Positions 8,396 to 52,006 of a DNA stretch of 64,000 nt are shown piece by piece; positions within the stretch are counted from its first letter, which is position 1, and each line of letters starts with the position of its first letter. A program made the position numbers and the translations under genes. The DNA comes from Spirochaetota bacterium (GTDB taxonomy: Bacteria; Spirochaetota; UBA4802; UBA5550): assembly GCA_963664815.2 (NCBI GenBank), contig CAXXHB010000003.1, positions 1,344,001 through 1,408,000 on the forward strand, given 5' to 3'. The notes beneath the pieces are model-generated. The model had not been told where the DNA came from. It saw nothing but the letters and a program-made list of their open reading frames with translations, and made no database searches.

Positions 8396-8410
8396 CATGA
8401 ATAAATCACC

Positions 8411-8741
8411 CCGGCAGCAGCCCCCTGAATCCTCCGGAGGATCCATAATCTTCCGGCGGCAGCCCCCTGAATCCCCCGGAGGATCCATAATCTTCAGGCA
8501 ACAGCCCCCTGAATCCTCTGAAGGATCCATAATCTTCAGGCAACAGCTCCCTAAATCCCCCGGAGGATCCATAATCTTCCGGCAACAGCCCCCTGAATCC
8601 CGCGGAGGATCCATAATCTTCCGGCAGCAGCCCCCTGAATCCCCCGGAGGATCCATAATCTTCAGGCAACAGCCCCCTGAATCCTCTGAAGGATCCATAA
8701 TCTTCCGGCAACAGCCCCCTAAATCCCCCGGAGGGGGACTT
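8411..8741. repeat. 42-bp tandem array (7 full units plus a partial unit running into an inverted-repeat end)
   Basis: Unit CCGGCARCAGCCCCCTGAATCCYCCGGAGGATCCATAATCTT at 8411, 8453 ... 8705. Confidence 0.95.
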
Positions 8742-8947
8742 GAAGATACTGTTATGAAATTATTTGTGTTAAATATTTTCTTATTTCAGACAGAACATAA
8801 TCAATTTCTGCTGCAGGCTTTTTCTCATGGCAGTAAAAAATCAGGTATTTATCTGTATATTAGATGCTGAACTCATAAATTTACTATTAAACTTGATATT
8901 TATTTGTAAAGCAGTCTTTAAGTCCTCCGCCGGGGGATTTAGGGGGC
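8714..8947 (-). mobile_element. IR-bounded element with heavily deleted DUF559-like endonuclease remnant
   Basis: IRs GCCCCCTAAATCCCCC..GGGGACTT (8714-8741) and AAGTCC..GGGGGATTTAGGGGGC (8920-8947); minus strand reads FYCHEKKPAAEIDYVL. Confidence 0.6.
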
Positions 8948-12236: not shown

Positions 12237-12390
12237 TTGTCAGTGCTGGATTGAACATGGTGCAACATAGACAGAAATCCCCCGGCCTGCTTCGGCAGGT
12301 CCGGCCTGTGCATATTAGGGCTTGTGCCCGAATATTTTGTAGAAACTAATATCATCCGGCGAGATCCGGCCTCCTGGATCACAGGCTGGT

Positions 12391-12773
12391 CCATAATCTT
12401 CCGGCAATAGCCCCCTAAGTCTCACAAAGGATCTATAATCTTCCGGCAACAGCCCCCTAAATCCCACAAAGGATCCATAATCTTCCGGCAACAGCCCCCT
12501 AAATCCCACAAAGGATCCATAATCTTTCAGCAACAGCCCCCTAAATCTCGCAAAGGATCTATAATCTTCCGGCAACAGCCCCCTAAATCCCACAAAGGAT
12601 CCATAATCTTTCAGCAATAGCCCCCTAAATCTCACAAAGGATCCATAATCTTCCGGCAACAGCCCCCTAAATCCCACAAAGGATCCATAATCTTTCAGCA
12701 ATAGCCCCCTAAATCTCACAAAGGATCCATAATCTTCCGGCAACAGCCCCCTAAATCCCCCGGCGGGGGACTT
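12391..12773. repeat. Second 42-bp tandem array (8 full units plus a partial unit)
   Basis: Unit YCRGCAAYAGCCCCCTAAATCYCACAAAGGATCYATAATCTT at 12401, 12443 ... 12737. Confidence 0.95.
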
Positions 12774-13069
12774 GAGGATACTGTTATGAAATTATTTGTG
12801 TTAAATATTTTTTATTTCAGGCAGAACATAATCCATATTGTTAATCACATCTTCATTTTTAAATCGTAAAGTGGTTATTCCGGCACTCTTAAGATATTAA
12901 TCCGTATAATTGTTATAATCCTTTCTGAGTTTATGAACATCTTCATTAATTTCTACAACAGGCTTTTTATCATGACAGTAAACCTCTTGTATGTGTCTGT
13001 GTATTATTTAACTAAGAATATTTATCTGTACAGCCGTCTTTAAGTCCCCTGCCGGGGGATTTAGGGGGC
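12746..13069 (-). pseudogene. DUF559 (Vsr-like endonuclease) gene remnant inside inverted repeats
   Basis: Minus strand FYCHDKKPVVEINEDVHKLRKDYNNYTD*YLKSAGITTLRFKNEDVINNMDYVL; IRs 12746-12773 and 13042-13069. Confidence 0.7.
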
Positions 13070-17059: not shown

Positions 17060-17997
17060 CATTTCCGGTTTCAATTAAAAAACCAGGGGAGCGGTGTGGT
17101 TAAAGAAAAGGGAAGGTGCGGTTCCATCGCTGACACGGGTATATTGATAATATTAATATGTTTTAAGAAAACAGCTTTCCTGTAGTGGTCCCCTCGATAC
17201 ATTTCCAGTTTCACTGGAAACACTCGGGGAGCGGTGTGGTTTAAGAAACCGGGAGGAGCTGTTCCGGAATTAATCCTGATATATTGATAATATTAATAAG
17301 TTTTAAGAAAACAGTTTTCCAGTAGTGATCCCCTCGATACATTTCCAGTTTTACTTAAAAACACTCGGGGAGCGGTGTGGTTTAAGAAACCGGGAGGAGC
17401 TGTTCCGGAATTAATCCTGATATATTGATAATATTAATAAGTTTTAAGAAAACAGTTTTCCAGTAGTGATCCCCTCGATACATTTCCAGTTTCACTTAAA
17501 AACACTCGGGGAGCGGTGTGGTTTAAGAAACCGGGAGGAGCTGTTCCGGAATTAATCCTGATATATTGATAATATTAATAAGTTTTAAGAAAACAGTTTT
17601 CCAGTAGTGGTCCCCTCGATACGTTTCCAGTTTCACTGGAAACACTCGGGGAGCGGTGTGGTTAAAGAAAAGGGAAAAGGCGGTTCCGGAGCTGACACGG
17701 GTATATCGATAATATTAATATGTTTTAAGAAAACAGCTTTCCTGTAGTGGTCCCCTCGATACATTTCCAGTTTCACTGGAAACACTCGGGGAGCGGTGTG
17801 GTTTAAGAAACCGGGAGGAGCTGTTCCGGAATTAATCCTGATATATTGATAATATTAATAAGTTTTAAGAAAACAGTTTTCCAGTAGTGATCCCCTCGAT
17901 ACATTTCCAGTTTTACTTAAAAACACTCGGGGAACGGTGTGGTTTAAGAAACCGTAAAAGGTGGTTCCGGAGCTGATACGGGCATATTGATAATATT
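17060..17997. repeat. 140/141-bp tandem array (~6.7 units) with REP-like hairpin
   Basis: GGGGAGCGGTGTGG at 17086, 17226, 17367, 17508, 17648, 17788 and a variant at 17929. Confidence 0.95.
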
Positions 17998-20187: not shown

Positions 20188-20233
20188 GGGTTACTGTACG
20201 TAACTTCTTTCGCTTTTTTCCGGATTTTTCCTG

Positions 20234-20270
20234 TGTTGTGCGAAAGATTTTGGATAGGACAAGTTATATG
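20234..20270 (+). other. Putative attI site, crossover G|TT at 20263
   Basis: GGATAGGACAA-GTTATAT 75 nt downstream of the intI stop; no attC hairpin to its left; right side complementary to the end of cassette 1. Confidence 0.55.
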
Positions 20271-20322
20271 CAATTGCCCCCCTTTATGTTTATTAAGGGA
20301 TCGTTTATATAGAAGGATTTTT

Positions 20323-21933
20323 ATGTATAGTGTAAACAATGAAATTGTCAAGAAAGCCATTAAATTTTTAAAAAAAGATATCTATGATGACTGGTTTTGT
20401 GACATTCAAAACTTTGATGACATTTTTAATGACATCAATAATATAACCAATATAATAAATGATAAGATTAGAAGTGGAAAAGGTATTTATTTAGCAGATA
20501 ATCCAATACTATTTAATATCCCAAAAGAAAATGGTGCGTTCAGATATACATTAGAGCTATGTCCATTAGACAGATTAGCATATCATATATTTGGAATTCA
20601 ATTGATTCATTATTTAGATCGCTCCCTTCCATTCAATGTTTTAGGTCATCGAAAAAATTTAGATGATAAAATGTTATTCAAACCAATGATTGAGCAATGG
20701 AATAAATTTGAAAATTATACAAGGATTTCTGGAATAAATAAACATATAATCCAAACAGATATTTCAAATTATTTCGATTATATAAATATTAACAGACTCA
20801 GAATCGAATTAATCAACTCGGCATCTGATGCAAATCTATCTTCTGAAGACTTTGTAAATTGTATTTATGCAATAGAGTCGATATTTTCAATATTAAAACA
20901 AATATCATTCGATGGAGAAAGAGGCTTACCTCAAAATAAAGATATATCTTCATTTTTAGCAAATATATACATGAGACCACTTGATAAATGCTTAAAGGAT
21001 GCAATTTATTTTAGATATATGGATGATATACGAATTATAGCTGATACTAGAGCAGATGCTAACCGCTATATGCTTTGCATAATTGAAGAATTAAGAAAAT
21101 GTGGCTTATCATTAAATAGTAGCAAAACAAAAATTTTAATTCCGAACAGTCAAGAGCACTCACATTTTTGTTTTGAAATGGATTTAGAGGCAAAAAAAAC
21201 TGATTCACTGTTTAACAGTGGAAAAAGAAAATACGTAATGGAGTCATTTAATATAATTTATTCCAATGTTCTTAAATATCTTGATGAAAGTAAAGTTAAT
21301 GAAAGAAAATTTCGTTTTTACTCCAATAGATTAATTACATTTTTAAATGCAAAAGATGTTAAAGTACCAAATAAATTTAAAAAAGAGATTTCTAGCAAAT
21401 TAATTGGAGTTATTACGGCAAAACCAGATTCAGCTGATAAAATATGTGCTTTAGTAAAAGCCATTGGACCTTTTAAAAAGCTACAAGATGATCTCGTCAA
21501 GTGGGCAGTAACACCTGATAATTTAACATATGAATGGGCAGTATATACAATTATAAAAACACTTATAATACAATCCTATAAATCAAAAACTTTGGATAAT
21601 TATTGTAAAGCTTGTTTAAATGATATTAACACTCCTGATAATATTAGGGGTATCTCAGCTGTATATTTAAATAAAAAAGCAAAAAAATCTATCATTAACT
21701 TACTATCAAGAAATAATTCACATTTTTTCCAAAGACATTTAATAATCGCACTGTCAGAAATGAAACCAGATATTCTTTTACAAAATGATATTTCAGAAAA
21801 AATAATACCGGACTTTAAAGGGCAACACCAGAATCTATATAAACTTTCTTTGAATGCTAACTTTTTATATGTAAAAGAACATGAACGAATCACACAAAGA
21901 GAATTGATTCAAGAGTTGAAAAATTATGCTTAA
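20323..21933 (+). CDS. Reverse transcriptase, UG/Abi (defence-associated)-like, with alpha-helical C-terminal extension
   Basis: IPKENGAFR, QTDISNYFDYI, GLPQNKDISSFLANIYM, YFRYMDDIRI, GLSLNSSKTKI; AGAAGGA RBS before ATG 20323. Confidence 0.92.
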   Translation: MYSVNNEIVKKAIKFLKKDIYDDWFCDIQNFDDIFNDINNITNIINDKIRSGKGIYLADNPILFNIPKENGAFRYTLELCPLDRLAYHIFGIQLIHYLDRSLPFNVLGHRKNLDDKMLFKPMIEQWNKFENYTRISGINKHIIQTDISNYFDYININRLRIELINSASDANLSSEDFVNCIYAIESIFSILKQISFDGERGLPQNKDISSFLANIYMRPLDKCLKDAIYFRYMDDIRIIADTRADANRYMLCIIEELRKCGLSLNSSKTKILIPNSQEHSHFCFEMDLEAKKTDSLFNSGKRKYVMESFNIIYSNVLKYLDESKVNERKFRFYSNRLITFLNAKDVKVPNKFKKEISSKLIGVITAKPDSADKICALVKAIGPFKKLQDDLVKWAVTPDNLTYEWAVYTIIKTLIIQSYKSKTLDNYCKACLNDINTPDNIRGISAVYLNKKAKKSIINLLSRNNSHFFQRHLIIALSEMKPDILLQNDISEKIIPDFKGQHQNLYKLSLNANFLYVKEHERITQRELIQELKNYA

Positions 21934-23494
21934 TATTGCAATATTTTTTAATAACTCTCTTGAGTCGATTCCATTTGCATTAACTTTAATTAATAATAAA
22001 GTTAGAATTATTAGAGATTTTAGACGCATAAGTTTCCCAGATAATATTATTACATTAGGATACACTGACACTATTGATTCATTTAGAAATCAAAATATTC
22101 CATTTAATGCAACTCAAAGAAGAATTGAAATTTTATATGCTTTAACAATATACTATTCTAAGGGTGACCAGTCGAAAAAATGGAAATTTCGTAAACCTGA
22201 AATCATAGGAAAATTTATAGAACCTTCTTTAATCACCAGGCTGAAACAATATGAAAATAATGAAATATCATGGAATGAATTTAGTAAAATTCTTTTTAAT
22301 CAAAAGACAAATTTATTAACTGCAGTTGATAACGTATATAATCAACTTATTACCGAATATACAAAAAATTCACTAATTAAACTGGCTTGGCTTGAAACAG
22401 AATTTTTTATTGATAATTATTTTTTAATTAATCAATATAATGGAATCATGGTTGATAAAAATAAAATTGAAAAACAGCTATATGATATGAACTTTCAAAA
22501 ATATTCTGCATTATTGTATTTAGAAAAGAATTATAATATGGATATTTCAAGTTCATATTTATCTGATGAAAAAATAGACGAACTTATACTTTCTGAGTAT
22601 AAAGATTTCGAACAAACAGAAGAAATTACTAATTTAATTCAAGTGGTTAATACTTCTGATAAAAGAATTGAATCAATAACTACAGTTAAAGAATGTCGTA
22701 TTGATTACGCAAATCTGATCAAACATTATTCTGCCGATGATATCCCATATGTATACCCACAATATGATGTCATTGGCAGTAGTAGTGGTAGAATCTTTAT
22801 TGCAAGCCCAGGTACACAATACTTAAAAAAATCAAGAAGAGACATATTTTCAGCACAAAAGAATCATACCCTTACATATTTTGATTTTAGAAATTATGAA
22901 CCTGGCATCGTTGCAGGTCTATCAAATGATAAAGATTTTATAAAATATTACAATTCAGGAGATATGTATTCAAAAATTGCATCTGAAGTTTATAATGACC
23001 CCGAAAAAAGAAAAGATGTAAAAATTTCAATTCTTATGTTATTATATGGTATGTCTACAGAATCCTTGCATAACTTTTTTAAAAATAATAGTAATTTTAA
23101 TCCTGATGGTGTTATTCATATTTTAAATGGTTTTATACAACTACAAGAATGGAAAAAAAGCATTTTGGACGATGTATTGAATAAATATGCTGTTATTGAT
23201 AAAACATATACAAGAAAGTTTTTACCAAATAGTGATTGGAAAATTAAAACATCCGCAGTTAACCATATAATACAATCAACTGGTTCTCGGATTCTAAAGC
23301 GTTGCATTAAAGAAATTGTTAATATTGAAGGAATTAAAATACTAATACCAATGCACGATGCACTTCTATGTGAAATTATTGATAACAAATATGTTGAGAT
23401 TAAAGAACAAGTAATTCATAAAATGGAGAGCATCTTTACTGATGAAGTAACGCATACTTCCTCCAAAGTAATCGTAACGGATTTTTCATCGTAA
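21926..23494 (+). CDS. Stand-alone family A DNA polymerase lacking the 5'-3' exonuclease
   Basis: SSGRIFIASPGTQ (motif 2), FDFRNYEP (A), RKDVK...LLYG (B), AVNHIIQ (6), PMHDAL (C); 8-nt overlap with RT stop. Confidence 0.88.
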   Translation: MLNIAIFFNNSLESIPFALTLINNKVRIIRDFRRISFPDNIITLGYTDTIDSFRNQNIPFNATQRRIEILYALTIYYSKGDQSKKWKFRKPEIIGKFIEPSLITRLKQYENNEISWNEFSKILFNQKTNLLTAVDNVYNQLITEYTKNSLIKLAWLETEFFIDNYFLINQYNGIMVDKNKIEKQLYDMNFQKYSALLYLEKNYNMDISSSYLSDEKIDELILSEYKDFEQTEEITNLIQVVNTSDKRIESITTVKECRIDYANLIKHYSADDIPYVYPQYDVIGSSSGRIFIASPGTQYLKKSRRDIFSAQKNHTLTYFDFRNYEPGIVAGLSNDKDFIKYYNSGDMYSKIASEVYNDPEKRKDVKISILMLLYGMSTESLHNFFKNNSNFNPDGVIHILNGFIQLQEWKKSILDDVLNKYAVIDKTYTRKFLPNSDWKIKTSAVNHIIQSTGSRILKRCIKEIVNIEGIKILIPMHDALLCEIIDNKYVEIKEQVIHKMESIFTDEVTHTSSKVIVTDFSS

Positions 23495-23562: not shown

Positions 23563-23689
23563 GCATATAACTTATAGAAGTCTTAACGATGTTGCCTCAA
23601 AAAAACCGCTAATCTTTATTAGCGGTATAAAAACATTAAACAGATAATTTCAATCTTCAGACAACAGCTATGTTAAGACTCTGTTGGAC
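23563..23689 (+). repeat. attC family A, copy 1
   Basis: GCATATAAC..GTCTTAAC / GTTAAGAC..GTTGGAC. Confidence 0.8.
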
Positions 23690-23700
23690 GAAACCACTGG

Positions 23701-23800
23701 GATCGAACAGTATATATAGGAATTTGAATGGGGGGAGAGGAGAGAATAGAAGAGGGCATCTTTGATCGAACAGTATATATAGGAATTTGAATCCGTTTTC
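23701..23800 (-). mobile_element. IS91-like oriIS end, duplicated
   Basis: Minus strand ATTCAAATTCCTATATATACT-GTTC twice (29-bp direct repeat 23701-23729 and 23764-23792). Confidence 0.6.
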
Positions 23801-24004
23801 TCCCGATCTTTGAAAGAACATACAGTAATAATCCGGTGATTTTACCGGAAAAAATAATAATCCCGTAAAATAATTATTTCTATAGTTATCTGATAGACTG
23901 TGAATGGCGATTTTATGCAAAATCTCAAAAGCTCCGGGCATACTTATCCTCTCTATGAAACAGTTTTTTAAATTTGTGAAGTATAGCTATACTCTTTATA
24001 ACAG

Positions 24005-24592
24005 CTAACCGTAAGTCGACAGGCCATGGATATAATGAATGTGTCCCTTTTCGCACTCCCTGCAGAGAGTTATATCAATCCTGAAATATTTCCAGAACAG
24101 AAATGCCGTATCCTCAAGAAGCTCTTTGCTTCGCTCATCCTGCTCCGCCAGGGGCTGACCAAGAAACATCCGGCAAAGGGCAAGATTGTTTGCCCTGTTA
24201 CGGTTTTCCATAAAACCGAAGAACCGGACTTTTTTAAATCCTTTAGGAAGAATATGCAGTACCAGACGTTTCATAAATTGAATCTCTGTAACAACCTCCA
24301 TTTTACTCTGCTTCCTTTTTCTATTGTAATAGCGGATGTAAACATTTCCATTCTCCGCTTTCTGTATCCGTTTATCACTGACTGCACTTTTAGCAACGTA
24401 TCTTGAAAGATAGCGGACTATGTTTTCCGGTTTCCTTTTATCTTTGCCGGGAAGCTGGGAGTTTACAACCCATGGAATATGCGCAAGCTGATTAAAAAGC
24501 TTTGCAATATCTTCAATACCGTCAGGTGTCTTTAAAGAACCGTTTTTAAGTTCTTTGCCGAGGTGGAATAAAAGCATTTTTCTGAATGTCAA
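24005..24592 (-). pseudogene. IS91-family Y2 transposase, C-terminal fragment
   Basis: 'YLSRYV' Y2 motif, 'FMKRLVLHILPKGFKKVRFFGF', C-terminal CxxC; 5' end cut by intron fragment. Confidence 0.85.
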
Positions 24593-24980
24593 AGGAAGCC
24601 TTTAAAAATCCCGATACTGTTCTTATTCAGGCTCTATGGAGATGGGGCAGATTCAGACACTCGATGAAAAATTCTTTATGGCTTAAAAACCTGTACTGGA
24701 AACGCATAGGAAACAGGGACTTAAACTTTCTGCTCTGATGAGGAGATTCTTATTACTGCAGGACACAATAAAATTGTACGGCACAGAATGATAAGTCTTG
24801 ACAGGAACCCATTTTTAAAAGAATATTCTGATTATTTCTACTATAGGAAAATGGGAATACAAACAGATAACAGCGGCTGGTTGTATAGAGAGCTTAAGAC
24901 GGCTTGAGCCGTATGAAGGGAAAGTTTCACGTACGGTTCTTATGGGGGGAAGGGGGTGCGAGCTTCCTGACCTACCAGAC
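24587..24980 (+). mobile_element. Group II intron 3' fragment (maturase tail remnant, D5, D6)
   Basis: D5 GAGCCGTATGAAGGGAAAGTTTCACGTACGGTTC (24906-24939), D6 ending CCTACCAGAC; upstream KIVRHRMISLDRNPFL. Confidence 0.88.
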
Positions 24981-25030
24981 TTTTCACCTGAATGCCGGAG
25001 ACATCGGTAACTCATAAAAGGATCGTATTT

Positions 25031-26104
25031 ATGAATTTTAATGTTACAATACTAACTGCTCCAGATCCAGAAATAACACTTAAGAAAGAAATCAACCTTT
25101 TGAAAGTCGCATTATTGTATTCTGATAAAATAACACTTATAAGTCCAACAGCATCAATGTTGCTATCAGTAATGCAAATGCATTTATTGGATGACGATAG
25201 TAAATTTGAGTTAGTAAAAACATATATGTTAGCTACTGGACAAGGAAATTATGACGAAATCGTTAATTTATATTCGACATATAAAAATCTGAAAACAAAG
25301 AAGCGTCTTTCAAGAGAAGAGTTATTATTAAAAATAAAACTGCGCGAAGGATTTGAAAAATTTACTAAATCACTTTCTGAAATCGGTGAAAAATTTTATA
25401 ATAATTCAAATTTCGATAAACTTGTACCTTTAATCGAAAAAGGATTTATTGAATTTAAACATTTCAATTATGGTATTGATGATGTTCAAGAATTTTTCAT
25501 GAATGAAATATTGGACGTTTTGAATGATGTCTATAAATATCCTTTATTTGATAACATGATTGAAGGAATCACTCATGCATATTCGATTGAAAATAATTTA
25601 TCAATTGCTAACAATAATCCAAAAGAAATTAAAATGGGAAAAGAAGTTCTTTTTAAACTTCCTAATATTGAAGAGTTAGATTTTATAGAAATAATTGAAT
25701 TAAAAAACAATTTAAATATAGAACTATCTAGATTTAAAGGAGCTTTATTAAATTATTCAAACAGTTTGATTTCATTACCATATTCAGAAAAAGACGATGT
25801 TGAAATATTTAAAAAATATGAATATTATATAAAACCAGAACTCGCTGATTTAAAAAATCAAATATCTCAAAATAAATTTATTAAGAAAATAAGAAATGAA
25901 TTGCTGAGCAATTCTACTAAATATGCAACTCAAACAATGGTGTGTATTGGATTATGTGAATTGATGGAATTTAATAAACTTATTTCAACTGTTGGTTTTT
26001 TAGGTGAATCAATGTATAAAACATTTAAAACAAAAGCTGATGAAAGTAAAAAAATAAAAAAACATCCTTTATTTTTCTATCATTCGATGGAGAAATTAAA
26101 ATAA
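25031..26104 (+). CDS. Hypothetical cassette protein
   Basis: AT-rich ORF followed 12 nt later by attC-A; no family recognised. Confidence 0.75.
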   Translation: MNFNVTILTAPDPEITLKKEINLLKVALLYSDKITLISPTASMLLSVMQMHLLDDDSKFELVKTYMLATGQGNYDEIVNLYSTYKNLKTKKRLSREELLLKIKLREGFEKFTKSLSEIGEKFYNNSNFDKLVPLIEKGFIEFKHFNYGIDDVQEFFMNEILDVLNDVYKYPLFDNMIEGITHAYSIENNLSIANNNPKEIKMGKEVLFKLPNIEELDFIEIIELKNNLNIELSRFKGALLNYSNSLISLPYSEKDDVEIFKKYEYYIKPELADLKNQISQNKFIKKIRNELLSNSTKYATQTMVCIGLCELMEFNKLISTVGFLGESMYKTFKTKADESKKIKKHPLFFYHSMEKLK

Positions 26105-26116
26105 AAAGTGAAAACT

Positions 26117-26226
26117 GCACACAACTTATAGAAGTCTTAACGTAGTTGCCTCAAAAAAACCGCTAATCTTTATTAGCGATATAAAAACATTAAACAGATA
26201 ATTTCAATCTTCAGACAGCAGCTATG
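26117..26226 (+). repeat. attC family A, copy 2 (3'-truncated)
   Basis: GCACACAAC-TTATAGAAGTCTTAACG...CAGCTATG then diverges. Confidence 0.75.
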
Positions 26227-26414
26227 ACCGTGAATAGCGATTTTGTGGATAGTGTCGCATTGTATAAAATAACTGTCTTGATTATTTATGAAAAGAATAG
26301 TATAAAGGTATATAAAGTACTGTAGAGTATTACTTATATCCGAAGATTTTATCTGTCAAACATTTAAAAAATCACTCTTTCGTACGCGGTAATGATTTAA
26401 ACGAGGGAATATTT

Positions 26415-27236
26415 GTGTTAATATATAAAGACAAATTTACTACTTTTCAGAAAGAAAATACGAAAACATCATATCAATCAACAATTGAAAATTTTGAATA
26501 CTTTTTGTGTAAGACATATAATTCTGAAATTAATGAAAACAATATAACAAGGACACAGATGATAAGTTATAATCAGTATCTAGTTAATATTTTTAATGAG
26601 GAAAGAACAATTTCAACACATATTTATGGGATAAGATCTTATTTTAAATTTTTATACAGGAAAGGTTATATTGAAAGTGATCCATCGACAATTCTTGAAT
26701 CACCACAGATTAAAAGAAAATCACCAATAATAATTACTCCCGAAGATCTTGAACAAATGCTAGATTTTCGATTAAATTCATTAGAAGATTACAGATTAAG
26801 AGTAATCATATTAATACTGTATTATACAGGATTAAAAGTCTCAGAATTAGTAGAATTAGAAATTGATGATGTTAAAGAGAATACATTAGTAGTTAAAAAT
26901 CAATTCAGTGGTTTTAGAGAACTACCATTGAATGGTGTTACGATCCAGTCAATAAATCAATATCTACTTCAAAGAGATGAGTTAAATGTATATTCACAAT
27001 ATTTAATTCACAGCAAGAAAGGAAGCATGCTAAATAGAAAATCATTATGGAGAATTTTAAATAGATTTACTGATAAAGAAAAATTTGGAAGCGATATAAA
27101 TCCAAATACTTTTAGAGAAAATTATATTATAAATAAACTTTGTGAACTACAGTATTTTTTAGGTTATGATAATTTGGGTAGCTTAATGAATTATATTCAT
27201 GAACATATAAAATATCAAAAGACTAGTGAAGACTAG
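26415..27236 (+). CDS. XerC/D-like tyrosine recombinase with degenerate catalytic residues
   Basis: SAM-like N-domain; YYTGLKVSEL (R->K), NPNTFR (H->N), LGY (H->Y). Confidence 0.75.
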   Translation: MLIYKDKFTTFQKENTKTSYQSTIENFEYFLCKTYNSEINENNITRTQMISYNQYLVNIFNEERTISTHIYGIRSYFKFLYRKGYIESDPSTILESPQIKRKSPIIITPEDLEQMLDFRLNSLEDYRLRVIILILYYTGLKVSELVELEIDDVKENTLVVKNQFSGFRELPLNGVTIQSINQYLLQRDELNVYSQYLIHSKKGSMLNRKSLWRILNRFTDKEKFGSDINPNTFRENYIINKLCELQYFLGYDNLGSLMNYIHEHIKYQKTSED

Positions 27237-27398
27237 ATCAGTTGAGAGTGACTCATACGTTTTGTATTCGCTTATTTTCATTTTTCATGGTTGCTTTATA
27301 TAACAAAGGAGTCTGTCTGAAAAAAATGTTTTAAACCGGATTATCTTCCGTCATTATTGATACCCAGACTTTTAATTGTTTTTAGGAATATGTATTCT

Positions 27399-27601
27399 TA
27401 TTTATTCAAATTTCTACATACGAATTATTCTTGCAATTATAAATCCGGTAATCTAAAATCCATTAATATTGTATTGGGCTACTGCTCAGGTGATTATGTC
27501 AAGCAAACAGGACGTTTGCACTTCGGCTGGCTCAGTTACCAGCTGCCGGCATATAACAGGTGATGCACTGATCGGCGTCGAAGTGATGTTATAAAAAAGC
27601 C
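27399..27601. repeat. ~200-bp dispersed repeat (second copy 50553-50772)
   Basis: TATTTATTCAAATTTCTACATACGAATTATTCTTG...ACAGGACGT...CTCAGTT...GCCGGCATATAACAGG shared. Confidence 0.75.
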
Positions 27602-27664
27602 GGCCAACTTGAAGAGTATCTCAATCAGTGAAGATTGATTAAGATACTCTTCTTAACGTTATCT
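27602..27664 (+). repeat. attC family B, copy 1
   Basis: GGCCAAC-GAAGAGTATC-TCAATC..GATTGA-GATACTCTTC-TTAAC-GTTATCT. Confidence 0.8.
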
Positions 27665-27727
27665 GAAATCGCCTTTTTTGGATTAAAGGCGAGCCGCCAT
27701 CCGTGGCGGTAAATATTAAAATGAAGA

Positions 27728-28312
27728 TTGACTTGGACGAATACTTATATGATGAAATATGATATAAACAATAACCCTCCTAAGAAAAGACATGATATTT
27801 TCTTTAAATGGTATATATCTACAATTAGATATTACTTACATGATGCATATAACCATTTTGAAAAAAATTATGACAAAACAGATAAAGAATTGATTACAAA
27901 GGAAGGCCTTCTTAATGATAATGAATTAATACATTGGTCAAAAGATTTAGTAATTGAATCAACTATACTGTTGTTAAATAATTTAATTGAGACTATAATT
28001 CAATCGATAGCTATTAAAATAGGAGAATATGACTTAGATACAATTAAAAATATAAATAGATTCGAACAGATTTCAATAATTGAGAGTAAATGTAACATAA
28101 AATTAAATACTATTTCTGGTTGGACTCATGTTGAAAAAATTAGAAAAGATGCAAACTTATTAAAGCATAACACAGGTTTTAAAATAATCCCTAGTTCTAA
28201 TGGCGTCATGGAGATTCAAAAGGTTAAAAGATCGGTTGAAGAATTGGATAAAAGCATTTCCATTATTGAAAAGTGGTTTATTAAATTCATTGATTTAACA
28301 AATGACATATAA
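27728..28312 (+). CDS. Hypothetical cassette protein, possible HEPN-like domain
   Basis: 'EKIRKDANLLKHNTG' resembles the HEPN R..N...H motif; start uncertain. Confidence 0.55.
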   Translation: MTWTNTYMMKYDINNNPPKKRHDIFFKWYISTIRYYLHDAYNHFEKNYDKTDKELITKEGLLNDNELIHWSKDLVIESTILLLNNLIETIIQSIAIKIGEYDLDTIKNINRFEQISIIESKCNIKLNTISGWTHVEKIRKDANLLKHNTGFKIIPSSNGVMEIQKVKRSVEELDKSISIIEKWFIKFIDLTNDI

Positions 28313-28386
28313 AGAATATCTATTTTAACCAGATGTATGTATTCCGGCCCAAACCTGCCACCCATTCCGGTTTTAGTCTGCCTCAC

Positions 28387-28808
28387 TGTCAAATGAAGCC
28401 TTTTAAAAATACCGATACTGTTCTTTTTCAGGCTCTATGGAGATGGCGCAGATTCAGGCACCCGATGAAAAAATATTTTATAGCTTAAAAAACGATGCTT
28501 TCAAACACATATGAAAAATGGACTTAAACTTTCTGTACTGATGATGAGATTCTTATATCTGCAGGACAGACACATTAAAATTGTACGGCACAGAATGATA
28601 ATTCTTGACAGGAACCCATTTTTAAAAGAAGATTCTGATTATTTCTGCTATAGAAAAATTGGAATACAAATGCTAACAGCGACTGGTATAGAGAGCTTAT
28701 GACAGCTTGAGCCGTATGAAAGGCGACCGGGGGAAGTGCCTGTGGTAAAAACTTTCACGAACGGTTCTTATGGGGGAAAGGGAGTGTAAACTCCCTGACC
28801 TACCAGAC
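28387..28808 (+). mobile_element. Group II intron 3' fragment, copy 2
   Basis: Same 5' boundary TGTCAAA.GAAGCC; D5 with insertion; ends CCTACCAGAC. Confidence 0.88.
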
Positions 28809-28849
28809 TTTTCGGGTGTATGAAACGGATTAGGCAAAAAGGAAAACTA

Positions 28850-29947
28850 ATGAATGACAAGTGGATGAAATTACTACTACGTTGGAAAAATATTCCAAAA
28901 GTGGAATTAAGTCGCACATCTTTTGAGATTGCGGGGTATCCTCATTTAGAAAATGTTAGTAGTAATATTTTAGCATTCTATTTTTGTGATGAAAACGAAC
29001 ATAATCTTGGAGACCTTTTTTTAAAATCAATACTCGAAATTATTTCAAGTTCAAACCATGATTCTTTTTCATTTGAGAACATTACTGTCCAAAAAGAAAT
29101 TACTACTGACGAAGGGAAAAGAATTGATTTGATAATAGAAACACCTGAATACTTAATTGGTATTGAAAATAAACTTTTTAGCTGGCTTCATAACGACCTA
29201 ACAAACTACCGAAAGCATCTAGAAAACTCAAAAAAATATGATAAGCAAAAAATATTTGCTGTAGTTTTATCGTTAAATCGACTTGATGACGATTTTTCAA
29301 GAAATAAAATCAATTCTAATGAATTTATTAATATTACTTATGACGATTTATTTTCTCGAGTAAGAAAAAATATTGGTGATTACATAAATAATTCAAATGA
29401 AAGATATTCACGAATACTACTTGAGTACATTGAAACAATAGAAAATTTAAAAGGAAGAAATATGGAAAATAAAGAAATGGAATTATTCTTTCAAGAACAT
29501 AAAGAGGATTTGAATGAACTAACACATAAATACAACGAATATTTACAACGTATCAGCAATAAAATATATGACTTGAAAAACATTATGTCAGAATTGGAAT
29601 TTTTTCGAACATTCAATAGAGAATGGATTTATGATAAATGTTGCTTGGTTTATGATTATTTAATAGATAATAATAGTGTTTCTATAGATACATACATTGG
29701 TACCGATGGCTGGTCTGTGGAACTCTTTGGAAGAAATACAAAATCTTCCTCTTATATTAATACAGAATTGATTTCAAATCATGAGCTATTAAGTATTGTA
29801 AATAATAATATAAAGAAAAGTGGCCGTAATGGAATAATAATATATGAAAATAGAGACATAAATGCTATTGAATCAACGAGTAAGAAACTATTAGAATTGA
29901 TAATTTTTCTTGAAAAAATAAAATCAGATAAAGGAAGTAATGCCTAA
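28850..29947 (+). CDS. PD-(D/E)XK nuclease family protein (PDDEXK_4-like)
   Basis: 'ENVSSNILAF', 'KRIDLII...IGIENK'. Confidence 0.85.
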   Translation: MNDKWMKLLLRWKNIPKVELSRTSFEIAGYPHLENVSSNILAFYFCDENEHNLGDLFLKSILEIISSSNHDSFSFENITVQKEITTDEGKRIDLIIETPEYLIGIENKLFSWLHNDLTNYRKHLENSKKYDKQKIFAVVLSLNRLDDDFSRNKINSNEFINITYDDLFSRVRKNIGDYINNSNERYSRILLEYIETIENLKGRNMENKEMELFFQEHKEDLNELTHKYNEYLQRISNKIYDLKNIMSELEFFRTFNREWIYDKCCLVYDYLIDNNSVSIDTYIGTDGWSVELFGRNTKSSSYINTELISNHELLSIVNNNIKKSGRNGIIIYENRDINAIESTSKKLLELIIFLEKIKSDKGSNA

Positions 29948-29986
29948 GCTGTATTAAGAGAGAATTATATATACACCCGAATAAGA

Positions 29987-30172
29987 TCGCACAACGTATA
30001 GAAGTCTTAACGTAGCTGCCTCAAAAAAACTGCTGGTCTTTATCAGCGGTATAAAAATATTAAGCAAATAATTTTAATTTCAGAGAGCAGCTATGTTAAG
30101 ACTTTTGTTGGACGAAACAACTGATATCTCAATCGGAGAAGATTGATTAAGATACTCTTCTTAACGTTATGT
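29987..30172 (+). repeat. Composite attC-A + linker + attC-B right half
   Basis: TCGCACAAC...GTTGGAC(30107)...TATCTCAATC...TTAAC-GTTATGT(30166). Confidence 0.8.
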
Positions 30173-30200
30173 GAAAGTTTTGAAATAAAATACAAAAAAA

Positions 30201-34101: not shown

Positions 34102-34164
34102 GGCCAACCAGAATAGTATCTCAATCGGAGAAGATTGATTAAGATACTATTCTTAACGTTATCT
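34102..34164 (+). repeat. attC family B, copy 2
   Basis: Compensatory pair GAATAGTATC/GATACTATTC versus GAAGAGTATC/GATACTCTTC in copy 1. Confidence 0.82.
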
Positions 34165-34266
34165 GCAATTCCCCCCGACTTGTGCTTGATAACTTTTTGT
34201 TTTTATTCATTATTAAAATATAAGAAAACTTCTTGACTACTAACCATATAATGATTACTTTGATTT

Positions 34267-34530
34267 ATGTACAATATAATCATTAAAAAAAGCATAATGA
34301 AAAATGTCCTGAAGATGCCGAAAGATATTCAATTTCATTTTGAATCTCTTGTTAATGATTTAAGAGAAAAAGGACCAGTTAGAAAAGAATGGCCGAACTT
34401 TAGCAGGTTAGGGAAAAATGAATACCATTGCCACTTATCACATAAATGGGTCGCATGTTGGTATTATGAAAATGATTCAGTAGTTATAGAGGTATATTAT
34501 GCAGGCAGTCGTGAAAACGCCCCGTATTGA
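34267..34530 (+). CDS. RelE/HigB-like toxin
   Basis: 87 aa basic protein upstream of and overlapping an HTH gene. Confidence 0.65.
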   Translation: MYNIIIKKSIMKNVLKMPKDIQFHFESLVNDLREKGPVRKEWPNFSRLGKNEYHCHLSHKWVACWYYENDSVVIEVYYAGSRENAPY

Positions 34531-34867
34531 AATAAACATTAAAGGTGATATTCCGCAGAAGATCATCACTTTATTGAAAGAAGAGTACGGAAAGAAAGTT
34601 CATTTAACAAAAGATGAAGACGATGAATATGTGGATATCTTCGAAACTGATTGGTATAAAAAAATCAGTGCAGAAAAAACTCCGGGCGACAATATGAAGA
34701 TTTACAGAAAGATTCATAAGTTAACTCAGAAAAAACTTGGTGAAATGCTTGGAGAAATTCCGGCGCAACACATTTCAAACATGGAAAACGGATCAAGACC
34801 AATTAGTAAAATTACAGCTAAGAAATTAGCAAAAATATTTGATGTATCAGTAGAACGGTTTATATAA
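34499..34867 (+). CDS. XRE-HTH antitoxin (HigA-like)
   Basis: 'LTQKKLGEMLG...HISNMENGSRPIS'. Confidence 0.8.
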   Translation: MQAVVKTPRIEINIKGDIPQKIITLLKEEYGKKVHLTKDEDDEYVDIFETDWYKKISAEKTPGDNMKIYRKIHKLTQKKLGEMLGEIPAQHISNMENGSRPISKITAKKLAKIFDVSVERFI

Positions 34868-34891
34868 TCAAACCGAACGGCGGGGGGAACA

Positions 34892-35019
34892 GCAGATAAC
34901 TTATAGAAGTCTTAACGTAGCTGCCCCAAAAAAACCGCTGGTCTTTATCAGCGATATAAAAATATTAAGCAGATAATTTTAATCTTCAGGCAGCAGCTAT
35001 GTTAAGACTTTTGTTGGAC
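34892..35019 (+). repeat. attC family A
   Basis: GCAGATAAC...GTTGGAC; GGGGGGAACAGCAGATAAC complements cassette start GTTATCTGCAATTCCCCCC (34158). Confidence 0.82.
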
Positions 35020-35064
35020 AAAACCACTGACATCGGGCATTTATTATAAAACATGGAGTGAAAA

Positions 35065-35709
35065 ATGGATTGTTGCAAAAAAGTAATTCAATATTCATTG
35101 TTAAGCGGTTTTATTTCAGCTGTAATCTATCCATTGACTGATATTATAGCCGGGAATATGTATAGAGGATATAGCTTTAATGAGCAAGCTGTAAGTGAAT
35201 TATTCGCGATTAATTCACCCGTTGCTCCATTAGTCGTTTTTCTTTTCTCAATATCGAGTGTTTTTTTAATTCTCTTTTCTGCAAGTGTCTTCATGTTTTC
35301 AAAGAATAAAAAAATTATGCGTTTTTTAGCCCTGATGTTATCAGGAAATGCAATCAATAGTCTGATTTTATGGAATTTCTTTCCAATGCATATGCGCAAT
35401 GTTCAGCCTGCATTTACTGATAAAATGCATGCAATTCTGGCAATAAATCCCTTTGTACTCATCAGTATCATCATCGGAGTTTTTATGTATAAAAACTGGT
35501 TCCGTTATTATTCTCTTTTAACCATATTGATATTATTCATTCCGGCATTTTTATCTTTTTCATATATCCCACTGTTATTATCACATCAGCCAACACCATG
35601 GATGGGGTTCACTGAACGTGTATCTCAGTATGGTCATTTGTCATGGCTCGCGGTGTTATCAATTATGTTATTCAATAAAAACAGAGCATTTCAGAAGGGT
35701 AGCCTTTAA
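35065..35709 (+). CDS. DUF998-like membrane protein, copy 1
   Basis: 'GYSFNEQAVSEL', 'FFPMH', 'GFTERV'; multi-TM. Confidence 0.75.
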   Translation: MDCCKKVIQYSLLSGFISAVIYPLTDIIAGNMYRGYSFNEQAVSELFAINSPVAPLVVFLFSISSVFLILFSASVFMFSKNKKIMRFLALMLSGNAINSLILWNFFPMHMRNVQPAFTDKMHAILAINPFVLISIIIGVFMYKNWFRYYSLLTILILFIPAFLSFSYIPLLLSHQPTPWMGFTERVSQYGHLSWLAVLSIMLFNKNRAFQKGSL

Positions 35710-36108
35710 AAATTCTGATACTGTTCTTTTTCAGGCTCTATAGAGATGGGGCAGATTCAGACACCCGATGAAAAATTCTTTATGGCTTAAAAACCGATGC
35801 TTTCAAACACATATGAAAAAGAGACTTAAACTTTCTGTTCTAATGATGAAATTCTTATATCTGCAGGACAAATTAAAATTGTACGGCACAGAATGATAAT
35901 TTTTGACAGGAACCCATTTTTAAAAGAAGATACTGATTATTTCTGCTATAAAAAACTGGAATTAAAACAGCTAACAGCCGCTGGTTGTATAGAGAGCTTA
36001 AGACGGCTTGAGCCGTATTAAAGGCGACCGGAGGAAGTGCCTGTGGTAAAACTTTCACGCACGGTTCTTATGGGGGAAAGGGGGTGTAAACTCCATGACC
36101 TGCCAGAC
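35691..36108 (+). mobile_element. Group II intron 3' fragment, copy 3
   Basis: Collinear with copies 1 and 2; D5 with insertion; ends CCTGCCAGAC. Confidence 0.85.
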
Positions 36109-39735: not shown

Positions 39736-39861
39736 TCGCATAATTTATGGAAGCATTAACGTAGCCGTCTAAAAACCGCTGGTCTTTATCAGCGGTATAA
39801 AAATATTAGAATAGATAATTTTAATCTTCAGGCAGCAGCTATGTTAAGACTTTTGTTGGAC
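39736..39861 (+). repeat. attC family A (degenerate left end)
   Basis: TCGCATAAT...CCGCTGGTCTTTATCAGCGG...GTTGGAC. Confidence 0.7.
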
Positions 39862-39906
39862 AAAACCACTGACATCGGGCATTTATTATAAAACATGGAG
39901 TGAAAA

Positions 39907-40551
39907 ATGAATTGTTGCAAAAAAGTAATTCAATATTCATTGTTAAGCGGTTTTATTTCAGCTGTAATCTATCCATTGACTGATATTATAGCCGGGAATA
40001 TGTATAGAGGATATAGCTTTAATGAGCAAGCTGTAAGTGAATTATTCGCGATTAATTCACCCGTTGCCCCATTAGTCGTTTTTCTTTTCTCAATATCGAG
40101 TGTTTTTTTAATTCTCTTTTCTGCAAGTGTCTTCATGTTTTCAAAGAATATAAAAATTATGCGTTTTTTAGCCATGATGTTATCAGGAAATGCAATCAAT
40201 AGTCTGATTTTATGGAATTTCTTTCCAATGCATATGCGCAATGTTCAGCCTGAATTTACTGATAAAATGCATGCAATTTTGGCAATAAATCCCTTTGTAC
40301 TCATCAGTATCATCATCGGAGTTTTTATGTATAAAAACTGGTTCCGTTATTATTCTCTTTTAACCATATTGATATTATTCATTCCGGCATTTTTATCTTT
40401 TTCATATATCCCACTGTTATTATCACATCAGCCAACACCATGGATGGGGTTCACTGAACGTGTATCTCAGTATGGTCATTTGTCATGGCTCGCGGTGTTA
40501 TCAATTATGTTATTCAATAAAAACAGAGCATTTCAGAAGGGTAGCCTTTAA
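39907..40551 (+). CDS. DUF998-like membrane protein, copy 2
   Basis: Four aa differences from 35065-35709. Confidence 0.75.
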   Translation: MNCCKKVIQYSLLSGFISAVIYPLTDIIAGNMYRGYSFNEQAVSELFAINSPVAPLVVFLFSISSVFLILFSASVFMFSKNIKIMRFLAMMLSGNAINSLILWNFFPMHMRNVQPEFTDKMHAILAINPFVLISIIIGVFMYKNWFRYYSLLTILILFIPAFLSFSYIPLLLSHQPTPWMGFTERVSQYGHLSWLAVLSIMLFNKNRAFQKGSL

Positions 40552-40737
40552 AAATTCTGATACTGTTCTTTTTCAAGCTCTATAGAGATGGGGCAGATTC
40601 AGACACCCGATGGAAAATTCTTTATGGCTTAAAAACCGGTACTTGAAAACGCACAGGAAACAGGGACTTAAACCTTTTGTTCTGATGATGAGATTCTTAT
40701 ATCTGCAGGACACGCTAAAATTATATGGTACAGAATT
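40533..40737 (+). mobile_element. Group II intron fragment, copy 4 (D5/D6 missing)
   Basis: Matches the first ~200 nt of copies 1-3. Confidence 0.75.
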
Positions 40738-40928
40738 ATCATATTGCATTCCAAACATAACTTGGTAATTCCATGGAAAGTAACCATTCTAAAATGATAT
40801 AATTCAAATGAAATTATTTACTGTTAGAATATCAATCGCAGATTTCTATAATGAACATGGAATTAGCACTGTGTCTCTGGTTTTCCAGAGCATAGATTTC
40901 GAATTTATTAAATAATAATAGAGGTTTT

Positions 40929-50499: not shown

Positions 50500-50809
50500 T
50501 TTATCAGCTCTTCAATAATTGCAGTATATTCAATAATATTCAAAGTTTCAAATATTTATTCAAATTTCTACATACGAATTATTCTTGAAAATATAAATCC
50601 AGTTGATTAAAACGCCATTAATATTGTGTCGGGCTGTTGTTCCGGGGGTTATGTCGGGCAGACAGGACGTCAGCATTCCGGCAGACTCAGTTGCCGCCTG
50701 CCGGCATATAACAGGCAGTACAATGTTTGTATTGATATTTCAGGAGAAGTGATGATGTAAAAAATCCAGCCATTATGAATATAATTCTGATTATGAATAG
50801 AGGGTTTAT

Positions 50810-51892: not shown

Positions 51893-51900
51893 GAAACATG

Positions 51901-52006
51901 GACTGGTTGTATAATAAGTTTCAGACGGCCCGAGTTGTACGATGGGAGACTTTCACGTATGGTTCTTATGCGGGACGGGGAGTGAATGCTCCATGACCTG
52001 CCGGAC
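51901..52006 (+). mobile_element. Group II intron D5-D6 remnant, copy 5
   Basis: GAGTTGTACGATGGGAGACTTTCACGTATGGTTC...CCTGCCGGAC. Confidence 0.7.

Follow-up and report, generated by a model that had tools for sequence, protein, structure and literature searches.

Intron remnants at cassette starts in the window

We analysed a 64-kb stretch of DNA (the window) from a Spirochaetota bacterium, which is part of a 4.27-Mb contig (C3) in a genome of 5.2 Mb with 38% G+C and a completeness of 96.2%, and we describe here the remnants of group II introns that lie at the starts of its gene cassettes. From about 18 to 57 kb the window holds small genes, all in one orientation, among them toxin-antitoxin pairs, nucleases and many proteins of unknown families, and between these array genes are conserved repeats that fall into several repeat families. 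The full inter-cassette element is about 170 nucleotides (nt) long and consists of unit A, a long stable hairpin (present 32 times on contig C3; z of -5.97 when a complete copy is folded), followed by unit B, which ends in ...CTTCTTAAC. The cassette start is an 11-nt semi-conserved core, GTTRYRYGNAA (GTTRYRYGNNN in its inferred form, with the last positions left free), and the cassette end is the mirror image of this start core, ...YAAC. The inverted repeat extends 6-14 cassette-specific bases beyond the cores, as in 34158-34177 and 34881-34900, and at core positions 10-11 the two arms are usually mismatched.

Five copies of the 3' part of a group II intron are found in this array, all of them on the strand that carries the open reading frames (ORFs), in sense to the cassettes (Table 1). 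The model for group II domains 5-6, RF00029, matches at 24904-24980 with 59.9 bits and at 28707-28808 with 42.9 bits (gathering score 40), and a weaker match at 36008-36108 (27.9 bits) falls below the threshold. Between them the copies carry domains 5 and 6 (D5-D6) with the catalytic AGC triad helix, as well as a remnant of a reverse transcriptase (RT)/maturase, the intron-encoded protein (IEP), which is frameshifted in the window and of which the last ~110-128 codons survive. A complete ribozyme with domains 1-4 is present in none of them, and these remnants are predicted to be unable to splice. Copies 1-4 start within about 10 nt of each other.

At copy 1 the junction reads ...CCAGAC(24980)/TTTTCAC, where the slash marks the intron end, and the bases after it are complementary to the right end of the same cassette, whose ORF (24992-26104) belongs to an unknown family without a Pfam match. 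At copy 2 the junction is ...CCAGAC(28808)/TTTTCGGGTGTAT, and here too the flank is complementary to the end of the cassette that follows (ORF 28820-29947, PD-(D/E)XK_4), with a one-base slip in the fit. The left flank of copy 2 is the tail of the cassette at 27728-28312, with no inter-cassette repeat between the two, and that of copy 1 is a fragment of an IS91-family element, in which the ORF at 24005-24592 matches PF04986 (Y2_Tnp, E 1.8e-24, profile positions 52-180 of 183); elsewhere in the genome the end segment of this element, X, normally runs on into the same transposase. No cassette end was matched to the 3' flank of copy 3, and there is no unit A within 9 kb of copy 5. Copies 3 and 4 lie in a 99% identical duplication (family D6, 34971-35270 and 39813-40112; also D7), and the duplicated DUF998 cassette with its remnant (34971-35806 and 39813-40648, 4842 nt apart, 99%) looks like a recent segmental duplication within the array.

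Contigs from public sequencing runs span the junctions of copies 1 and 2 without differences (X1 record 5, corresponding to 24930-26149, and records of X1, X2 and X4 from 28630); these runs may be the source sample of the assembly, and the bridging argues only against a local mis-join. No intron-less or full-length allele was found in these contigs, and the joints listed there derive from repeats.

Table 1. Positions of the intron remnants, cassettes and inter-cassette elements within the window
Feature	Position	Strand	Description
Unit A, conserved inter-cassette repeat	23572..23704	+	Repeat families D3, D9, D11; follows the end core ...TGCATATAAC (ends 23571) of the upstream RT/PolA cassette
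IS91-family fragment	23705..24588	-	End segment X (~23770-23935) and C-terminal half of the transposase (ORF 24005-24592), abutting the 5' end of copy 1
Copy 1	24589..24980	+	Last ~390 nt of the intron (IEP C-terminal pseudo-ORF, 3' side of domain 4, D5, D6); canonical 34-nt D5; equals positions 1758-2148 of L099
Cassette 1 minus its first 11 nt	24981..26125	+	Left arm TTTTCAC 24981-24987; right arm GTGAAAA 26108-26114; end core CTGCACACAAC 26115-26125
Unit B, uninvaded reference site	27591..27668	+	Family D5; ...CTTCTTAAC to 27657, then native start core GTTATCTGAAA 27658-27668
Copy 2	28389..28808	+	24-25 nt insertion in the D5 terminal loop; RF00029 at 28707-28808
Cassette 2 minus its first ~11 nt	28809..29995	+	Left arm TTTTCGGGTGTAT 28809-28821; right arm ATACACCCGAATAA 29971-29984; end core GATCGCACAAC 29985-29995
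Complete element, unit A and unit B	29996..30165	+	Between cassette 2 and the next cassette; next core GTTATGTGAAA at 30166-30176
Intact cassette with both arms	34158..34900	+	Start core GTTATCTGCAA 34158-34168, then TTCCCCCCG; end CGGGGGGAA 34881-34889, then CAGCAGATAAC 34890-34900
Copy 3	35689..36108	+	Fused to the 3' end of the DUF998 gene (35065-35709); RF00029 27.9 bits
Copy 4	40531..40739	+	Cut on the 3' side, without D5-D6; part of the duplication of DUF998 and remnant
Copy 5	51895..52006	+	D5-D6 only; canonical 34-nt D5; AAGGAGG and ATG follow

The same junction across the genome

A blastn search with copy 1 found 23 segments at 22 loci, all on contig C3, and 20 of these loci keep the intron 3' end. 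At eight of the 20 the first 6-13 bases of the 3' flank are the reverse complement of a cassette end, and these matching ends lie exactly 11 nt before a unit A (remnants at 1368980, 1372808 with the slip, 1966557, 2545318, 2559229, 2565932, 3691791 and 1104481). A strict automatic test, in which the 10-mer directly after the intron end was compared with cassette ends anchored on unit A and at most two mismatches were allowed, gives a hit at offset 11 for 6 of the 32 cassette ends; every other offset from 5 to 17 gives 0-2, and over 200 rounds of composition-shuffled controls the mean is 0.5 and the highest count 3. A looser complementarity test was discarded, as 1255 of 3000 random positions pass it. 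The intron remnants at cassette starts are real and are consistent across the genome.

By our reading of the mapping, the 32 cassette ends correspond to 8 invaded starts, 8 native starts and 16 that are unmapped. All 13 intact unit B sites on the chromosome of the window are followed by native cores, with no stump of an intron 5' end; this count leaves out a 14th regular-expression match (C3:789232), which is seemingly spurious. The 5' exon, that is, unit B with the 11-nt core, is gone in every remnant, and invaded cassettes therefore join whatever lies upstream without an intact boundary site.

By cumulative GC skew, replication starts near 0/4.24 Mb and terminates near 1.88 Mb, and at 20 of the 22 loci the intron sense strand is the leading-strand sequence, the template of lagging-strand synthesis, the exceptions being the two loci at 1.10 Mb. 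The strand preference of introns without an endonuclease fits this orientation. The bias is weak evidence, since the arrays that hold these loci, about 8 in number, run with replication themselves.

Lineage of the remnants

The IEP remnant of 128 amino acids (aa) matches six longer proteins at 70-85% identity, the best being P0001 (500 aa, 85%). P0001 has the domains RVT_1, RVT_N and GIIM, and an endonuclease domain is not listed for it. Its best relative of solved structure is 6me0_C (E 7e-154), far ahead of LtrA (3e-40) and of two IIC enzymes, the GsI-IIC RT (9e-30) and one other (3e-28). The intron of 6me0_C, Th.e.I3/T.el4h, is described in passages of PMC8643678 as a IIB1 intron with a chloroplast-like 1 (CL1) RT, so that the CL1 placement stands on a strong similarity to one CL1 protein and on a class label taken from those passages.

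Among the matches listed, a metagenome scan for the 85% class gave three loci at 53-59% identity, and a scan of the genome collection supplied the relatives used below (the best 80 of 550), so that the group of boundary-homing introns may be larger than described here. An intron of 2148 nt, L099, came to light in a genome of the same family (G084) when the proteins of 122 genomes of the class were searched; its IEP has 486 aa and is 77% identical to P0001. The intron RNA of the relatives matches RF02012 and their boundaries are 5' GUGCG ... GAC 3'; in this genome RF02012 has no match, and no D1-D4 of the remnant lineage was found. The remnant DNA has no match in 7 genomes of the same genus and 17 further genomes of the family, and three genomes of the order give short D5-like DNA matches only.

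The known introns of integron recombination sites, IIC-attC, combine a class C IEP with IIC RNA and an antisense insertion in the bottom strand. The remnant lineage has neither this protein nor this RNA, and the window copies, L099 and a further relative, L081, are all in sense. Judged from protein and RNA similarity, the remnant lineage is chloroplast-like-1/IIB1-like and not IIC.

A second lineage is present in the same arrays. Genome-wide, RF00029 has nine matches above its cut-off, of which eight are of the remnant lineage and one belongs to the only intact intron of the genome, a separate IIC-like intron (L098; RF01999, IEP of 413 aa, C3 ~3196430-3194618, minus strand). This intron lies in sense 19 nt upstream of the end core of a cassette, behind a small hairpin.

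Target recognition in intact relatives

We compared the 5' exons of 61 relatives aligned at the intron 5' ends. L099 has the 5' exon ...GGAAC GTTGTACACCA/GTGCG and the 3' exon TATTTCTAT, which corresponds to the reverse complement of its cassette end, GTTGTACGCCATGTTTCTAT; it is inserted in sense between nt 11 and 12 of the cassette, as are the rule-obeying remnants. L081, from a member of the Clostridiaceae (Bacillota), is also in sense, with the 5' exon ...GGGAAC GTTATCTGAAA/GTGCG and the 3' exon CTTATTTGT, in agreement with the reverse complement of the cassette end, GTTATCTGATG CTTATTTGC. L082, from Halanaerobacter (Bacillota), has the 5' exon ...CAGGAAC GTTATATGAAA/GTGCG, and its contig ends before the 3' exon can be compared. 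In a quick maximum-likelihood tree of 60 IEPs (IQ-TREE), L081, L082, L099 and L069 form one clade with P0001, P0002, P0005 and P0006, with a support of 98 in the Shimodaira-Hasegawa-like approximate likelihood ratio test (SH-aLRT). Other clades (loci L013-L092) have conserved 5' exons within protein-coding motifs, for example ...GAYCCNGARNNNGAR/ and ...GAYMGNGGNNNNCAR/, and these look like separate homing specialisations.

The loops of the exon-binding sites EBS1 and EBS2 were located by covariation in 17 relatives, in which the pairing with the intron's own exon has a mean of 4.6 (EBS1) and 4.3 (EBS2) of 6 positions, against 2.7 and 2.4 for non-cognate exons. In L020, for instance, CUGCCG pairs with CGGCAG and AAGCAG with CUGCUU, and in L069 AGUUUG pairs with CAAACU, such that the EBS2 loop covaries with the exon. 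In L081, L082 and L099 the EBS2 sequence AACGU pairs with ACGUU at positions -13 to -9, across AAC/GTT, at 5 of 5 positions by our reading, when counted as the 5-bp EBS2 that passages of PMC8643678 describe for IIB1 introns; scored over six positions, EBS2 and EBS1 give 5 and 5 in L081, 5 and 6 in L082, and 5 and 4 in L099. EBS2a, the single base two positions ahead of EBS2 (its place according to PMC8643678), is a U opposite A-14 in L081 and L099, a Watson-Crick pair in two of the three introns. The partner of EBS1 is the final six bases of the core, with 6 of 6 positions paired in L082 (UUUCGU with AUGAAA) and 5 of 6 in L081 (UUUCGC). These relatives are predicted to find their site by base pairing, mainly with ACGTT and the last six core bases.

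An insertion directed by structure, as in IIC introns, would mean that the intron recognises the foot of a top-strand hairpin and inserts just behind it, with pairing of minor importance. The site is indeed where the semi-conserved 11-nt core stops and the cassette-specific sequence starts, L099 fits its exon with EBS1 at four of six positions, and passages of Sonbol and Siam (PMC7923331) raise this idea for IIB introns behind attC. We consider it improbable for the introns described here: the EBS2 loop of this lineage covaries with the exon, as in L069, and its IEP is CL1-like rather than IIC. IIC introns are not known to have an EBS2. Furthermore, the pairing partners lie inside the supposed stem, with which the pairing would compete, and the minimum-energy fold of the complete site leaves the end core unpaired with the next start core.

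Truncation and probable reshuffling

When L099 is the query, none of the 20 matches reaches outside positions 1749-2148 of its 2148, and 13 of them start at 1749-1761, in an AU-rich part of the maturase domain that has the codons ...GMVSKEAFKN. The 13 starts span at least five left-hand contexts. The type A left flank, found in four copies including copy 1, consists of the end of the IS91-family element with 650 nt of the element, and the type B left flank, in 5-6 copies, of 185 nt of that end; the other flanks are a diverged shorter piece of the IS91-family end (one copy), an unrelated cassette tail (copy 2) and the DUF998 gene (copies 3 and 4). Over about 1 kb of left flank the four copies of type A are 92-100% identical, but each has a different cassette on its right. 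Two readings of the left side were tried and rejected: the ~75 nt upstream of the type B copies are not IEP codons but the IS91-family end, which occurs at at least 20 sites and normally runs into the transposase, and the truncation point is not a pseudo-recombination site, the left flanks being unlike site ends.

In 18 copies D5 is readable, and 14 of these have an insertion of at least 24 nt in its terminal loop while 4 have the canonical 34-nt form. Forms of 34 nt and 58 nt occur both within type A and within type B. The insertion, at 28722-28750 in copy 2, is absent from copy 1, copy 5, two others and L099. The mosaic distribution of D5 forms is best explained by recombination between remnants, and together with the shared left junctions it points to shuffling at the DNA level rather than to a mobile unit of 400 nt.

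Such a unit, a non-autonomous retroelement that a complete intron or a separate 5' half would mobilise in trans, is what the first-pass annotation had suggested when it noted that copies 1-4 share nearly the same 5' truncation point. The common truncation point holds and is sharper genome-wide, with a hard bound upstream of which none of the 20 matches extends and with starts clustered in the face of diverse left contexts, as a mobile unit would have it. Spread of this kind is not shown, and we consider it unlikely, as domains 1-3, the EBS sites and almost the whole RT are missing from the unit, and no D1-D4 of the lineage is present in a genome of this completeness. Moreover, copies that have their left junction in common (4 in type A, 5-6 in type B) cannot each stem from an insertion of their own, and the mosaic D5 forms indicate recombination between copies.

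Origin of the remnants

The ~400-nt units are, in our view, probably dead, 5'-truncated remnants of an endonuclease-less intron of the CL1/IIB1 kind that homed to one boundary site. The target would be the strand that carries the ORFs, between nt 11 and 12 of the left terminal repeat of the cassette, just downstream of ...AAC/GTT.... Many independent retrohoming events by a complete intron, which is now not in the assembly, would have created the distinct right junctions, and the 5' parts would have been lost at or soon after insertion. Homologous recombination between remnants would then have reshuffled and duplicated the left halves, and such recombination in the left flanks would explain both the identical left junctions before different cassettes and the presence of both D5 forms within each junction type. 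For the truncation itself we weakly favour, at somewhat short of an even chance, a break of the RNA or a stop of the RT in the AU-rich domain 4, through which abortive insertions would be joined to upstream DNA and the 5' exon would be lost.

Several observations weigh against this account or parts of it. Twelve of the 20 remnants have no identifiable or no matching cassette end, and for those at 2548558 and 2539911 the nearest cassette end mismatches. The support for the clade comes from a quick tree search only, and L069, of the same clade, is inserted at an unrelated site. EBS2a of L082 has a C opposite the A, and EBS1 of L099, UUGCGU, pairs at only 4 of 6 positions with the present 5' exon ACACCA; it would fit cores of the GUGCAA type, common in this genome, at 6 of 6. 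The pairing is seen in relatives whose IEPs are 53-77% identical to P0001, which is itself the intact protein nearest to the remnant, and for the 85%-class sub-lineage of this genome it is a prediction. Finally, the arrays are integron-like rather than proven integrons, and they offer a second candidate for the crossover point (see below).

What the first-pass annotation had claimed is supported in part. Its placement of intron 3' ends about 11 nt inside cassette starts, in sense, is borne out by eight of 20 remnants genome-wide, copies 1 and 2 among them, as far as the tabulation of 3' flanks that it had proposed is concerned, with the other 12 left without a matching end; copy 5, which it had put before a ribosome-binding site and ATG, does end at 52006 ahead of these. 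A lineage distinct from IIC-attC was correctly anticipated, given 6me0_C as the closest structure and RF02012 in the relatives. The check that it had named, pairing of EBS sequences with cassette starts, came out positive in the intact L081, L082 and L099 (EBS2 5 of 5; EBS1 5, 6 and 4 of 6). Its proposal of top-strand homing just past the core is right as to position and orientation and needs amendment as to recognition, which appears to run mainly through ACGTT and the last six core bases.

It is about as improbable as structure-directed insertion that the remnants have been retained as a promoter or structured leader for the downstream cassette. They do lie in sense directly upstream of cassette ORFs, there is a TTGACA-18-AATATT match at 24798-24827, and outward promoters of IIC-attC introns are documented in passages of PMC3001079. 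Promoter-like sites are, however, not more frequent than in shuffled sequences (1 and 2 found against 1.1 expected), and the TTGACA lies within the conserved coding remnant. That one or a few ancient insertions were copied by duplication or cassette shuffling, with no site-specific homing, would suit the 99% duplication of copies 3 and 4, the 3' flank shared by 2548558 and 2539911 and the shared left-flank families, but it is very improbable, being already contradicted by at least eight different cassettes that each begin after the intron with the complement of their own end, and by three further genomes, two from Bacillota, in which intact introns with matching EBS have this same offset.

We propose further, with slightly less than even confidence, that these introns form a dedicated 'IIB-attC' clade of CL1 IIB1 introns, found in Bacillota and in the lineage of the window, which would home through EBS1, EBS2 and EBS2a to A-ACGTT plus the 8-nt core on the top strand, as a mirror image of IIC-attC. 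Insertion, most of all when abortive, would destroy the right half-site and fuse cassettes, and the 400-nt remnants would reflect a place in domain 4 at which the intron RNA tends to break during retrohoming. Loss of boundary sites and fusion of cassettes could thus come about in a definite way, and about half of the mapped starts carry a remnant (8 against 8). The intron would then act as a cassette fixer that welds neighbours together. The hard limit of the remnants at 400 nt could reveal a step of endonuclease-independent retrohoming.

Status of the arrays and neighbouring features

The arrays consist of co-oriented, mostly single-gene cassettes between imperfect inverted repeats bounded by ...AAC and GTT..., as integron arrays do. 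No integron integrase is present in the window. The best recombinase candidates genome-wide, located beside two arrays, score 220.7 and 164.6 bits on TIGR02249, below its cut-off of 265, and both leave profile positions 180-234, the segment that marks integron integrases, unmatched; one of them passes NF040815, 'XerA/integron integrase' (235.3 against a cut-off of 220), and a recombinase of the same type is present in two genomes of the family. We regard the arrays as integron-like on this sequence evidence. One array-adjacent recombinase gene is directly followed by an IS91 transposase gene.

The second crossover candidate, besides the GTTAT... after unit B, is a canonical-looking GTTGGAC that closes unit A (...CTTTTGTTGGACGAAAC). 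With two candidates, we take the terminal inverted repeats of each cassette to define where it starts. The 21 nt after GTTGGAC are conserved, and some cassettes (DUF998, from 34971) begin right there without unit B. The order of the arms (specific arm, core, conserved element, core, specific arm) looks inside-out when compared with attC, and the cassette-specific inverted repeats of 6-14 bp outside the 11-nt cores are also found in the cassettes of L081 and L099. In canonical attC geometry, complementarity beyond the R boxes is not a requirement.

In at least 20 inter-cassette repeats the IS91-family element adjoins unit A with one and the same end and at an identical position (...CACTGGGATC/GAACAG...), which suggests that it may likewise target inter-cassette sites. 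Within a split inter-cassette element lies a gene for a XerD-like recombinase of 273 aa (26415-27236). A segment of ~160 nt on its 3' side (27399-27560) recurs at 50553-50715 (~50.6 kb) and also 3' of a pair made up of a Xer-like recombinase and a full IS91 transposase (L097 8800-11930); it always runs into unit B and a cassette and in this resembles an attI-type entry site.

Upstream of copy 1, an RVT_1 reverse transcriptase (566 aa) followed by a family A polymerase-like gene (522 aa) occupies 20233-23494. The two genes make up one cassette-like unit with a ...ATAAC core at its end, and they may be an RT pair of the defence type. Immediately before the array, at 17062-17997, a unit of 140-141 nt is repeated in tandem seven times, and two blocks of a 42-nt tandem repeat at 8285-8836 and 12275-12868 adjoin alcohol dehydrogenase genes.

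Comparison with known systems

Passages of PMC3001079 place IIC-attC introns between a gene and the attC that belongs to it, in the bottom strand and against the direction of cassette transcription. Like these introns (e.g. S.ma.I2), the lineage described here is specialised on inter-cassette recombination sites, lacks an endonuclease and occupies the margin of the site, not a gene. It differs in being in sense, between the site and the next gene, in its CL1/IIB1-like character and in the use of EBS2 as well as EBS1. Insertion in attC was a property of class C alone in the passages concerned of a 2015 review (PMC4424553), and passages of Sonbol and Siam (2021, PMC7923331) cite one IIC intron in a top strand.

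A counterpart in position is UHB.I2, a CL1 IIB1 intron on an integron contig from a soda lake, which the same paper describes as being in sense 'immediately after an attC site'. By this description, on which our comparison is based, the two share a CL1 IEP, a IIB1 RNA, the orientation of the cassettes and the location after attC. UHB.I2 is, however, a single copy with the ends 5' UUGCG..GU 3', and the passages on it report poor exon conservation among homologues and give no fixed offset or conserved target, whereas here a clade has one offset and a predicted pairing to a conserved boundary. The fragments H.ha.F1 and H.ha.F2 of Halorhodospira halochloris, from a cluster of attC sites lacking an integron integrase (CALIN), resemble the remnants in being 5'-truncated IIB fragments that consist of D5-D6 and part of the IEP behind attC-like structures (PMC7923331). 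They have class E IEPs and exist in two copies, and no common truncation point or exact offset is reported for them in the passages concerned.

Th.e.I3/T.el4h and EcI5, both CL1 and IIB1, include the intron of the closest solved protein (6me0_C), and passages of PMC8643678 describe for them the same geometry, with a 5-bp EBS2-IBS2 (intron-binding site 2) pairing at -13 to -9, EBS2a at -14 and EBS1 at -6 to -1. Their sites are ordinary unique or intron-borne ones, unlike the boundary of a recombination type that is repeated here dozens of times per genome. Full-text literature searches gave, among the matches listed, no IIB lineage that combines a fixed offset with pairing of its EBS to the boundary. 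Sense IIB introns beside attC have been known since 2021, and what appears to be new here is a clade with a fixed offset that would pair to the boundary. Class C introns, which recognise a folded hairpin of the bottom strand, were previously the only known specialists of integron sites. A second, unrelated lineage that reaches the other strand through plain base pairing would make cassette boundaries a recurrent niche of retroelements, and it would represent a programmable system of the IIB1 type whose target sequence occurs dozens of times in some genomes.

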